A stretch of DNA of 64,000 nt from Octopus vulgaris (lineage: Eukaryota). The notes beneath the pieces were generated by a model. It saw only the letters and a list, made by a program, of their open reading frames with translations. It was not told where the DNA came from and made no database searches. This document shows, piece after piece, positions 2,587 to 54,566 of the stretch (positions are counted from its first letter, which is position 1; each line of letters begins with the position of its first letter). A program made the position numbers and the translations under genes. The stretch is from contig OX597836.1 of assembly GCA_951406725.2 (NCBI GenBank), positions 22,692,001 through 22,756,000 on the forward strand, given 5' to 3'.

Positions 2587-2882
2587 GTAGCAATATTAAA
2601 GTCAATACCACCATGACTGATATCCAATCTACAGTGGAGAAGGCTAGCCATTGGATTTGGTTAAAAAGAGACGATGAGCGATGGCTAGAAGGATATTGAG
2701 TTTTTCATAACCAGCTGATCTAGCAAGCGGGGCCTTATATCAGTGAGGGGGGCCAGTGCGCATTGATGCCGTCGAGAGGTAGGCCCCGAAACGGCACGCA
2801 TTCTCTCCTGATGACCCCATACACTTGCTAGCTTCCGATATACGGAGCTTTTAACTGGTAGCACTTGCATGTGCAAGTTGTT
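2587..2882 (+). mobile_element. 5'-truncated HERO-like (RLE-type) non-LTR retrotransposon 3' end inserted in the Helitron
   Basis: Reads ...IQSTVEKASHWIWLKRDDERWLEGY* (stop 2697-2699), a C-terminal motif I recognise from HERO-clade ORFs, followed by a structured 3'UTR. The Helitron frame (MTPF | ARHIREEN) is split at this point. Confidence 0.7.
2720..2831 (+). ncRNA. Permuted hammerhead-like RNA structure in HERO-like 3'UTR (copy A)
   Basis: TGCCGTC-GAGAG-GTA-GGCCCC-GAAACGGCA-CGCATT-CTCTC-CTGATGA-CCCC, with upstream partners GGGG, a hairpin, GGGGCC and AGTGCG. It is closed by CTAGCAAG/CTTGCTAG. Confidence 0.6.
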
Positions 2883-3653
2883 TGCAAGACATATAAGAGA
2901 AGAGAACATGAAGCCAACTTTTAGAGTTCAAGGTCAAGTATACTATTGTAATGGTTCTTTATTATCAACTGAAGGCAAAAATCCTCAGTTTTTACAGCTA
3001 TATTTTATGTCAAATTACAAGGATCAGGCTTTGCAACAGTCATTTAACCTTCCAAATTTGAAAGAAGAGTTAATCTTTCATCTGCAAGATATGTTGCAGA
3101 TGAACAATAGCTACATCAGAAGCTTTGAGTATGCATTGGAATCTGCACCATCCACTGAATACAAGGTAGTTATTGATGCAGACAAAAAGCCTATCGCTGA
3201 GCACAGAGGCCACTACAAAGCCCCTGCCACAAAGGAAATAGCAGCAATTATTACAGGCGATGAGTATGGGAAGAGAGATATTATTATTCAAGGAAAAGGA
3301 AATATGATTCAGCAGATAAATGCAACCCACTGTTCATATGATGCACCCCAGTATCCATTAATCTGTGTGTTTGGCATTGATGGATATCACTTTAGGATAA
3401 AAAAGAAACAGATACGTAATTTCCTTCAACACATGTGATAGAATTTATCTCCCTTCATAAAAGTGGTAAATTTTGTATTTTCGTTTTTTTTATTATTTTT
3501 TTTTTTTTTTGTATTATGAATTCAGAATTGATTTCTTAATTGGAGAATAAATTGAATTTAGAATAACAAATTTCTTTACAACATATTTTGCTTTTTTCTT
3601 CCAATATATAAGGAACAATTTCATTCCTGGGCAAAACCGATTGACTCTGCTAG

Positions 3654-52206: not shown

Positions 52207-53059
52207 AGCTTCCTGCCCCTGCTTCTAACCCCTTCCATTTTGAAAATAATTCTCCTTAATCCTTCTTGTCCATGTCTTCTTATCCGATACACTCCGTAGC
52301 AGTTATATAAATAGCCAGGAATTAAATCCATCATTCTCTCAGAGAAACAGCAAGATATGAGCTTAATGGAATTTTGGACTGGAGTCACTTAATGGACGGT
52401 ATTGGTCTCTCTTCTTTCTTTGAAACACAATAACATTGGCCTTGCCAACACAGGCATCAACACATCAGCATCACCAATACTACTACCATCATCACCAACA
52501 CCATCACCGTCTTCATCATAATCATCATCATCATCATCATCACCATTACCATCACCACCACCACCATCATCATCATCATCACTACCATCATCATCACCAT
52601 AATCATCATCACCGTCACCATCAACACCACCACCATCATCGCCACCACCAACAACATCATCACTACCAACAGCACCAGCATCACCATAATCATCATCATC
52701 ATCACCACCACCACTACCACCACCACCACCACCAGTGTGCCTATGTATGTATATCTTTTATCTTTTTTTCTTTTATTTACTTCAGTCGTTAGACTGTGGC
52801 CATGCTGGGACACCGCCTTGAAGAATGCTCAACCCCAGTACTTATATTTTAAAGTTGCATTTTTATTGTATCAGTCACTTTTGCCGAACTATTAAGTCAC
52901 AGGGATGTAAACACACCGGCACTGGTTGACAAGCAATGATGGGAGGACAAACACAGACACAAAGACACACATAGATGTATACATATATATGACAGGCTTC
53001 TTTCAGTTTCCAGCTACCAAATCCACTCACAACGCTTTGGTCAGCCTGAAGCTAGAGAA

Positions 53060-53565
53060 TTACAACCGTGTTTCATGGTCTGCTACCACAACAGCTCCTT
53101 TATAGGATCCAGTTAGCTCAAGACATCATCAGGAGGAACCACGTCCGGTTTCGGCCCCTACTCCTCTACCATTTTGACATGGCGGGGCCCCTCCTTTCGG
53201 AGGTGTCTTCAGCTCTGGTGGTGGGTGCATGTCTTCTTTCTTCTGTTCCCTGGCCTCTTCCATCCGATTGCGCTCAAATTTGATATGTCAGCGAGTGTCA
53301 GCCGGTGACTGACTGTCTTGTCAAATTTTTCTCTTTAAATACCTGCCGCATAGGCTCCAGCAGGCAGCCCCAGCAAGTTGTCATGTGACACTGTCTCACC
53401 TTAACTGACTTGTGAAGGCGCGTAGTTTTAGCCCGCGCTTTTTCTAAACGACCGTCACCTGTCAGTTAGCAAAGCTGATTCAGTCAGCTTGTCTCACCTA
53501 ATGATGTTATTTCCCGTCGACGTGTTTATGACTTTCAAGCCATTTTCGGTCTTCCCGCTTCAGCC

Positions 53566-53570
<5 letters not shown>
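53060..53570 (-). mobile_element. 5'-truncated HERO-like retrotransposon 3' end (second family)
   Basis: The minus strand begins IWLKREDRKWLESHKHVDGK*, matching IWLKRDDERWLEGY* of copy A, followed by a long 3'UTR. Confidence 0.68.
53115..53214 (-). ncRNA. Permuted hammerhead-like RNA structure in HERO-like 3'UTR (copy B)
   Basis: Minus strand AAGACA-CCTCCGAAAGGAGG-GGCCCC-G-CCATGTC-AAAAT-GGTA-GAGGA-GTA-GGGGCC-GAAACC-GGACGTGG-T-TCCTC-CTGATGA-TGTCTT. Confidence 0.6.
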
Positions 53571-53605
<35 letters not shown>

Positions 53606-54566
53606 TGTATACAGTGCTCAGGTGCACTACAACTCATCTAAAGTGTATATATAATCAGGTGTAGTTTCGGCAGATTTCGGAAAGCATGAGGGCCTTAAAG
53701 GATGCAGTGTCATGGCAGTCAATATATAGAAGCTGGCTTTTTCAACCGCCTCCTGTACTCTCCTTATTAGTTTACACAGCTCATAAAGGTGTCACATTGT
53801 GAGACTGAACCCCCAACCATGTGGTTGGGAAGCAAGCTTCTTACCACACAGCCATGTCTGTGCCGATATAAAAATTAAACCATTAATGCATGCCTGTGTT
53901 ATACATGCCAGGATGTCTGTCTCACATTAATTTCACACACCATTATGATTATCTAATTATCAAAACCAGTCATTCTAATTACAGTTTACTTTCATTAAAT
54001 ACATGAAAGGTAATAAATCTGTTTTAGAAATATTTAATAAATATAAAATCACATAGAATATATAGTAAAAATATATAACATATAATGATATATAATATAC
54101 AATAGTGTATGATAAATAATTAAAATATATAATATATAATGAAGATATATGATTAAAGTATGGAATAAATGATGGAGAAGATAAGGGGGAAATTGAAACA
54201 AAATTGAAATAGATTTTGAGAGTAAATTTTAATAAATATTGTACATTACTTTCTCAATTAACCTAAATACATACATATATACACATATATATATGTGTGT
54301 GTATATATGTGTGTGTGCATGCAAGTGTATATATGTGTGTGTGCATGCAAGTGTATATATATATAGATATAGATATAGATAAAGAGAAACAGACAGACAG
54401 AGGCAGACAGAGACAGACAGACAGACAGATACATACATAGATGTCTCTTATTTTTTTAGTTGTTTCATTCATTAGACTGCGGCCATGCTGGGGCACTGCC
54501 TTGAAGAACTTTGAGTCAAATAAATTGATTCCAGTTCTTGTTTTCATTTTTTAAGCCACTGTTTAC

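Follow-up and report, generated by a model that had tools for sequence, protein, structure and literature searches.

A conserved RNA fold holding the full catalytic core of a hammerhead ribozyme is present behind the open reading frame (ORF) of many HERO-like elements, which are non-LTR retrotransposons with a restriction-like endonuclease (RLE). Two copies of this fold, copy A and copy B, each from a different element family (families A and B), lie in the window, i.e. the whole stretch of 64,000 nucleotides of Octopus vulgaris DNA analysed here. We regard it as practically certain that the fold is real.

The fold in the window and its host elements

Copy B lies on the minus strand at 53209-53120, and all the elements that a sequence-only reading had placed there were located. 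No hammerhead core base is missing: the cleavage block comes first, then GAAA and last CUGAUGA, which is the order of type SGC (Eckert 2023). Instead of forming one stem II with each other, the strands that follow CUGAUGA and precede GAAA are each paired with a strand of their own further upstream; this split stem II is arranged around an inserted hairpin as a four-way junction. On the minus strand from 53218 to 53109, the 5' half consists of the 5' strand of helix a, the hairpin with its GAAA loop, the 5' strands of helices b and e, an A bulge and the 5' strand of stem III with GUA, and the 3' half of the 5' strand of stem I, a UA link, the 3' strand of b, GAAA, the 3' strands of III, e and I, CUGAUGA and the 3' strand of a. 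The features of both copies are as follows.

53204..53209, minus strand: helix a, 5' strand; pairs with 53125-53120, outward extension at 53211-53218
53190..53203, minus strand: hairpin with a GAAA loop, inserted as second arm of the four-way junction
53184..53189, minus strand: helix b, 5' strand, read as the 10-side strand of stem II displaced upstream; partner 53158-53153
53176..53182, minus strand: helix e, 5' strand, taken to correspond to the helix by which stems I and II interact in published SGC ribozymes; partner 53145-53139
53172..53175, minus strand: 4-nt A bulge from helix e to stem III; most relatives have the kink-turn consensus instead
53161..53171, minus strand: block S, with stem III 5' strand, G-U-A triplet, predicted cut 53167/53166 and stem I 5' strand
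53146..53158, minus strand: block G, with helix b 3' strand (read as the 11-side of stem II), GAA and stem III 3' strand; G-A-A-A-C invariant in 36/36 motifs
53126..53145, minus strand: 3' strands of helix e and of stem I, then CUGAUGA; CUGA.GA invariant in 36/36 motifs
53109..53125, minus strand: helix a, 3' strand and outward extension (from sequence, fold and per-motif fits)
53057..53108, minus strand: tail, ending at the usual insertion end of family B (29/30 copies within a 5-nt span); putative internal priming site
53057..53570, minus strand: 5'-truncated family-B copy with the last ORF codons, 3' untranslated part, ribozyme and 3' end (blastn 89.7% to the unit)
53722..53782, minus strand: further 5' piece of the same family-B copy (blastn 90% to unit 3366-3426), with an insertion of about 150 nt between the two pieces
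2729..2818, plus strand: copy A, the family-A counterpart of this fold, within the element copy 2597-2898 and with its predicted cut at 2773/2774

Stem III of copy B, first read as the 3-bp helix GGT/ACC, has 4 bp including one U-G (53171-53168 with 53149-53146), while stem I pairs 53166-53161 with 53138-53133 and CUGAUGA occupies 53132-53126. A17 is position 53167. The G of the GTA linker lengthens stem I as a G-U pair; this linker, which had been called invariant, is so in families A and B, but beyond them the spacing between stem I and helix b varies from 0 to 8 nt. Copy A has the element order of copy B with different helix sequences, as had been claimed. The list of elements was right, but it overlooked that helix b would be the true stem II and helix e the interaction helix of SGC ribozymes.

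CTGATGA was seen 7 times in the window versus 11.8 expected by chance, and GAAAC lies 8-30 nt upstream of it in copies A and B only. The strand of copy B folds with z = -3.78, and none of 200 shuffles was equally stable. In comparison with most family-B copies, it carries two C-to-T changes that turn pairs into G-U pairs and that, in the nested fold, also give an alternative CCAU/AUGG hairpin. Rfam models gave no match at gathering score anywhere in the window, and near copy B only chance matches. An HDV-like ribozyme reading was dropped, since no P1/P3 fit was found by eye.

In the genome searched (G000, 2.8 Gb), there are at least 2440 candidates of family B and at least 2362 of family A, with units of 3916 nt and 3737 nt, respectively. 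Long copies encode a reverse transcriptase, a Cys-His finger and a PD..E..K nuclease motif. One family-A copy (L062) has an intact ORF of 1091 aa with an RVT_1 match (E 5e-19) and the motifs visible in its translation; the best PDB matches of this protein are R2 proteins. Copies of family A are up to 99.9% alike, while copy B in the window is probably an inert, truncated insertion with a single ribozyme. Named homologues come from fish and oyster and include Takifugu BAC82598.1. HEROFr corresponds to AB097130 (available text of PMC2790886) and, judging from organism and accession series, BAC82598.1 appears to be HEROFr; we therefore term the families HERO-like. A third family in the same genome, with the same spacing and another first base after the cut, was not found among the 100 listed of 114 matches (control 5): 90 of these 100 were variants of A or B and the rest AT-rich chance matches. 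No relatives were obtained from a viral contig collection.

Some side observations concern the same DNA. In family B (L001-L030), the equivalent of window 53194-53183, i.e. the 3' arm of the hairpin and the 5' strand of b, is an indel hot spot: over 27 copies, a single 10-nt bin has 18 deleted bases together with 8 insertion events, compared with mostly 0-1 elsewhere. The hot spot is weaker in family A, and slippage on G/C runs and reverse-transcriptase errors are indistinguishable as its source. Pfam searches with 16 long ORFs of the window gave nothing above cut-off. The translation of window 2850-3438 (plus strand), after copy A, lacks a Pfam match and resembles what we take, from its motifs, to be a Helitron Rep/helicase fragment.

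Conservation of the motif and its relation to published hammerheads

A protein alignment search yielded 79 metagenome loci, drawn from the 80 best among 355 confirmed ones, and a further 8 loci in genome records. When both strands were scanned, cores in SGC order appeared on the coding strand only, 58-721 nt behind the ORF match, and none on the opposite strand; the matches thus lie downstream of RLE ORFs of the W(I/L)W(L/I)KR type, the arrangement for which the sequence-only reading had proposed a test. This fixed place behind the ORF and the absence from the other strand give support that is independent of the selection for core letters. In a tree of the C-terminal region, families A and B form one clade (support 0.94) with the fish and oyster proteins; BAC82598.1 stands among the motif-bearing loci in this tree, which was built without named references of other clades. 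Among the 48 loci of this clade with enough downstream DNA, the strict descriptor found the motif in 38, a decayed motif was recognised by eye in 8, and 2 had none. In the sister clade, an SGC-like core was present in 3-4 of the 18 loci having at least 400 nt downstream. Rfam searches on 20 motif-negative loci gave nothing at gathering score.

Within the sister clade, cores in SGC order were noted at L162:3844-3888, L168 and L189:1188-1238; one of them has a U4C change, and another a flipped 15.2-16.2 pair with no junction found. The motif-negative loci L173, L174, L183 and L185 have another conserved non-coding element in common, located 80-200 nt past the ORF match, with an apparent helix and pseudoknot and, in L174, without an Rfam match, which may be another ribozyme. 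Loci L189-L196 are eukaryotic retrotransposon contigs inside bacterial or archaeal genome records, most likely contamination.

Statistics were calculated on 37 motifs, leaving aside the near-duplicates L124, L152 and L157, the loci L127 and L143 cut by contig ends, and L189. The motif-bearing families share 30-53% protein identity. A junction of helix a, hairpin and helix b with zero spacers occurs in 36 of the 37 motifs and, fitted per sequence, reaches p<=0.05 against shuffled upstream DNA in 35; pairs a.1-a.3 of helix a are formed in all 36 fitted motifs. For covariation, an unfitted MAFFT alignment of 36 motifs was used, with L112 left out. Of 469 cells in stems I, III and b, 92.8% were paired; double-sided changes numbered 105, 11 of 14 pairs changed on both sides, and none of 500 shuffles reached the covariation score, a test inflated by the relatedness of the sequences. 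The control in which the register was slid by 1-3 columns is free of that flaw, and here pairing fell to 36-47%. The two stems flanking the core, stem I (99% of cells paired) and stem III (95%), both show double-sided changes. These results bear out the proposal that selection acts on an RNA structure. The core had also been said to be invariant, and CUGANGA, GAAA (with its C) and NUH are indeed kept in 36/36 aligned motifs, which were chosen for these letters. H17 is never G in the 37 motifs, in part by the search rule.

A direct stem II is absent from these motifs. A direct 10.1-11.1 pair after A9 is formed in 1 of 37, and no register gives a consistent helix; the five registers tried were rejected, with 42% of cells paired and 156 of 500 shuffles as high, i.e. 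at chance level. Helix e, fitted per sequence and without shuffle control, has 5-10 bp in 33 of 36 fitted motifs. In the kink-turn consensus, tandem GA/GA follows a bulge of 3 nt, with a canonical stem on one side and a non-canonical one on the other. At the joint of helix e and stem III, 23 of 37 motifs match this consensus (NNN-GA/GA); the corresponding pattern matches 1-2 motifs when the bulge is set to 1, 2 or 4 bases, and 8 when it is set to 0 or 5. Families A, B and their close relatives have a bulge of 4-6 nt instead of the consensus. A sharp bend at this joint is what the geometry needs.

The closest published molecules are the type-SGC hammerheads (HRIMA-1 and variants) which, according to the available text of Eckert 2023 (PMC10085705, to which the statements of this paragraph on that type refer), were recovered from metatranscriptomes and validated, with none described there from genomes belonging to known organisms, save for one weak GCS case. 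Both share the block order S-G-C, the core bases and a short linker between stem I and the 11-side of stem II. Both also have an extra helix beside stem I, named I' there and e here, the other strand of which follows the stem II partner. The published alignment runs III-UH-I-link-II-GAAA-III..I'-I-CUGAUGA-U-II-n-I'. There, the strand after CUGAUGA pairs, past a bulged U, directly with the strand before GAAA, whereas in the HERO-like motif it does not, and the uninterrupted block C, with the stem II strand within 1-2 nt of CUGAnGA, is missing from the latter. The published search pattern demanded such a direct stem II, with its strand within two bases of CUGAnGA. Since the HERO-like motif breaks this rule, Rfam models and published search patterns miss it.

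From its sequence, the motif reads as the published SGC molecule with its free ends joined via the bulge or kink-turn and reopened at the bulged U, where helix a, which holds the free ends, and the hairpin would have been inserted to give a perfect four-way junction. By this correspondence, helix b is stem II and helix e is the SGC interaction helix, and the core would stack on helix b in the way that it does on an ordinary stem II. How stem III is linked to the stem I-II helix is an open structural question in the available text of Eckert 2023 (PMC10085705).

Insertions at the predicted cut and across it

With cleavage after H17, some reverse transcripts primed in the tail would be expected to end at precisely that bond. 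A family-A pattern for 5' ends between +1 and +30 gave 90 matches, 63 of which were examined with their flanks. They include 31 short copies; in 13 of these the element begins precisely at +1, next to unrelated DNA upstream, and the remaining 18 have their starts at the other 29 positions (binomial p 7e-12). The other 27 matches were judged by eye to have continuing element DNA (shifted intact copies), save one start at +27. One further copy joins +1 to an internal position of the element, the outcome expected if the enzyme had reached a free 5' end and jumped to another template. Among the first 100 of 876 family-A copies in genome order, an unselected sample, the start lies at +1 in 3 and at one of the 95 other positions covered in 8 (p 2e-4). 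With a stricter pattern, all 9 matches were junctions at +1, 8 of them to foreign DNA and one to an internal element position.

In family B, 4 starts at +1 were counted among about 19 short starts (p 0.003; 89 matches, 36 examined), where two of the four and the figure of about 19 were read by eye; a stricter pattern placed 1 of 2 matches at +1. A family-B pattern at -3 gave 16 matches, all with element DNA upstream and 6 with deletions of the region of the hairpin, b and e; it excludes the family base at one of three places only and is invalid as a control. Clear target-site duplications were seen in only 1-2 of 19 cut-site copies. The pile-up of 5' ends at +1 is indirect evidence that makes self-cleavage after H17 in vivo likely; that the motif cleaves we hold with considerable confidence.

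The cut-site copies include L228, L234, L247, L287-L300 and L319. In 12 of 14 cut-starting family-A copies, a T, often as AT, stands just before the cut, which may be a target preference or an untemplated addition. Four long family-B insertions (L350, L353, L356 and L359) begin at -42 to -48 relative to the cut, within the 5' strand of helix a.

The other ends of the insertions are well defined. Family-A 3' ends lie about 116-126 nt after the cut (46 of 48 scored; 59 examined) and those of family B at about 105 nt; in both families they are staggered and without poly(A) or repeat tail. Every sequence that follows is preceded by the element's own 3' end (21/21 unit starts in A and 20/20 in B, six of the B matches being one duplicated event), so that the usual insertion end is not an RNA end; in family B, the 20 unit starts follow it seamlessly. 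The motif thus sits at the joint of head-to-tail units and not at a true 3' end, which the sequence-only reading had missed. The 5' ends of insertions are random, their lengths reach 1.03 to at least 1.5 units, and their flanks are unrelated host DNA. Of 21 long family-A copies, 18 cross the upstream cut and none starts at it; overall, about 97% of copies cross the cut.

Internally deleted short units likewise exceed one unit. Mini-units of about 0.36-1.45 kb that keep the ribozyme (L330, L332, L334, L336, L339, L341 and L350, with a contig in runs X1 and X3) are candidate non-autonomous derivatives. Duplicated parts within one insertion shared no private variant and were no more alike than copies at other loci; a single template per insertion is therefore not supported. 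A repeated deletion breakpoint was seen in one deleted copy only (L354). Nine metagenome contigs of the motif group close on themselves with a period of 3.6-3.8 kb, and some sister-clade contigs also close head to tail, although most of that clade is without the motif. Contigs from four sequencing runs presumed to be RNA cover family A, and one of 1283 nt, from an internally deleted unit, is self-closing; it was set aside, since a longer-than-unit DNA copy would also explain it. In contig L125, two families (69% alike) stand head to tail with a period of 3730 nt, each with its own ribozyme, either by a template switch or as an assembly chimera.

A proposed replication cycle and its meaning

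Starting from the observed structure and position, the longer-than-unit insertions without a fixed 5' end and the family-A pile-up, we infer catalysis and ring formation as follows. In this scheme, which we favour somewhat, the ribozyme would cut the transcript to a unit-length RNA; ring closure or, alternatively, a template jump would then connect its ends, and reverse transcription would begin at an internal site. A longer-than-unit donor transcribed through two ribozymes would yield a unit RNA with its priming site near the 5' end, from which products of more than about 120 nt could arise only by crossing the cut. The cut ends would stay paired via helices a, b, e and III, favouring ligation or a seamless jump, and joining may proceed by the reverse reaction or by an RtcB-type ligase. 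Priming would take place internally, about 105-120 nt after the cut, with rolling-circle-like reverse transcription, and failed closure would leave the short cut-site insertions. In catalysis, the coaxial stack of core and helix b would stand in for stem II; because A9 and the 10-strand are separated here, contrary to the block rule of Eckert 2023, activity of this motif cannot be assumed from that of the tested ribozymes.

A precedent for ribozyme cutting followed by RtcB closure is described for retrozymes in the available text of PMC7229834. Animal non-LTR retrozymes (PMC7229834; bioRxiv 10.64898/2026.07.22.740005, from the portions available) resemble the proposed cycle in having tandem units whose hammerhead-cut monomers circularise. 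They are non-coding, of 170-400 nt and with a type I hammerhead, whereas the HERO-like unit is autonomous, has 3.7-3.9 kb and codes for reverse transcriptase and endonuclease. A wider reading, which we advance tentatively and at somewhat less than even chance, is that HERO-type LINEs across animals are autonomous protein-coding retrozymes, in which a split-stem hammerhead braced by a kink-turn would cut the unit RNA and keep its ends in contact to give a 3.7-kb circle, copied by internally primed rolling-circle reverse transcription with the element's own RLE/reverse transcriptase; the split stem II with its kink-turn brace would then be, as part of this reading, the seventh natural hammerhead wiring.

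It is also conceivable, and we rate it as rather unlikely, that the ribozyme is active while replication goes through uncut multimeric transcripts, as proposed for Penelope-like elements, so that cut-site insertions are by-products and the cut either forms a message 5' end for cap-independent translation (the ORF lies 390 nt downstream) or tunes the RNA level. The crossing of the cut by about 97% of copies is explained equally well by uncut RNA, and the weak +1 signal in family B, the family of copy B, speaks for uncut templates and against the ring. According to the available text of PMC11167929, Penelope-like elements prime internally and, in one such element, unprocessed RNA is the main substrate in vitro; their pLTR hammerheads share with the HERO-like motif the partial-tandem copies, the position near the unit joint and the internal start of reverse transcription. 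They differ by a GIY-YIG endonuclease and a type I or minimal hammerhead, compared with the RLE and split-stem wiring here, and that study detected no RNA ends at their cut, whereas HERO-like genomic copies start at the cut. Ribozyme-linked translation is known in other systems (available text of PMC13725137). However, a transcript cannot exceed its donor, so that longer-than-unit donors would shrink over generations unless the seamless joint is regenerated, and an R2-type 5' end at the cut is found in none of the 21 long copies. R2 and other RLE elements with 5' HDV-like ribozymes (in part from the available text of PMC13580325) have the same single ORF with reverse transcriptase, CCHC finger and PD-(D/E)xK, and a ribozyme upstream of the ORF, as here in the co-transcript. 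In R2, the 5' end is fixed at the ribozyme cut and priming occurs at the RNA 3' end, whereas long HERO-like copies never start at the cut and their insertion end is inside a continuous unit.

The position of the cut between ORF and priming site would also suit a self-limiting device, which severs the priming tail from the ORF in transcripts with a single ribozyme and in host read-through transcripts, with tandems arising by insertion into the element's own joint, as the two families head to tail in L125 might suggest. This would need stand-alone full-length copies starting at the joint; as none of 41 unit starts does so and the flanks are unrelated host DNA, the idea is largely refuted and we give it little credence. 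Least probable, and in our view very improbable, is a non-catalytic relic or protein-binding fold with +1 ends produced by stalling of the reverse transcriptase, for which the lack of a direct stem II and the clustering of indels and some 5' ends at -16 to -48 could be quoted, but all catalytic bases are invariant, including an H17 that, partly by the search rule, is never G, the pile-up is at the single predicted bond, and with the partners of stems I and III already copied at +1, no helix would be left to stall the enzyme.

In the literature outside subscription papers and Repbase Reports, neither this wiring nor any ribozyme or circular RNA of HERO elements was found to be described, and the available text of Forgia 2023 (PMC10162972) contains no split-stem variant. 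What is new is the split-stem wiring of a known kind of ribozyme and, possibly, a replication cycle of LINEs. Hammerheads without circular permutation were known before only from anonymous metatranscriptome RNAs (available text of PMC10085705). The split-stem form has thousands of copies in one animal genome and extends across a wide clade of retrotransposons. Its kink-turn is a candidate answer to the question, raised in Eckert 2023, of the way in which stem III can be linked to the stem I-II helix. For a hammerhead of a retrotransposon, in-vivo evidence such as the genomic copies starting at the cut is rare. If the ring step is true, a LINE with a restriction-like endonuclease would replicate unlike R2 or L1, which would bear on early retroelement evolution, on repeat annotation, where consensus ends would not be RNA ends, and on tools for RNA-templated gene insertion built on RLE proteins.
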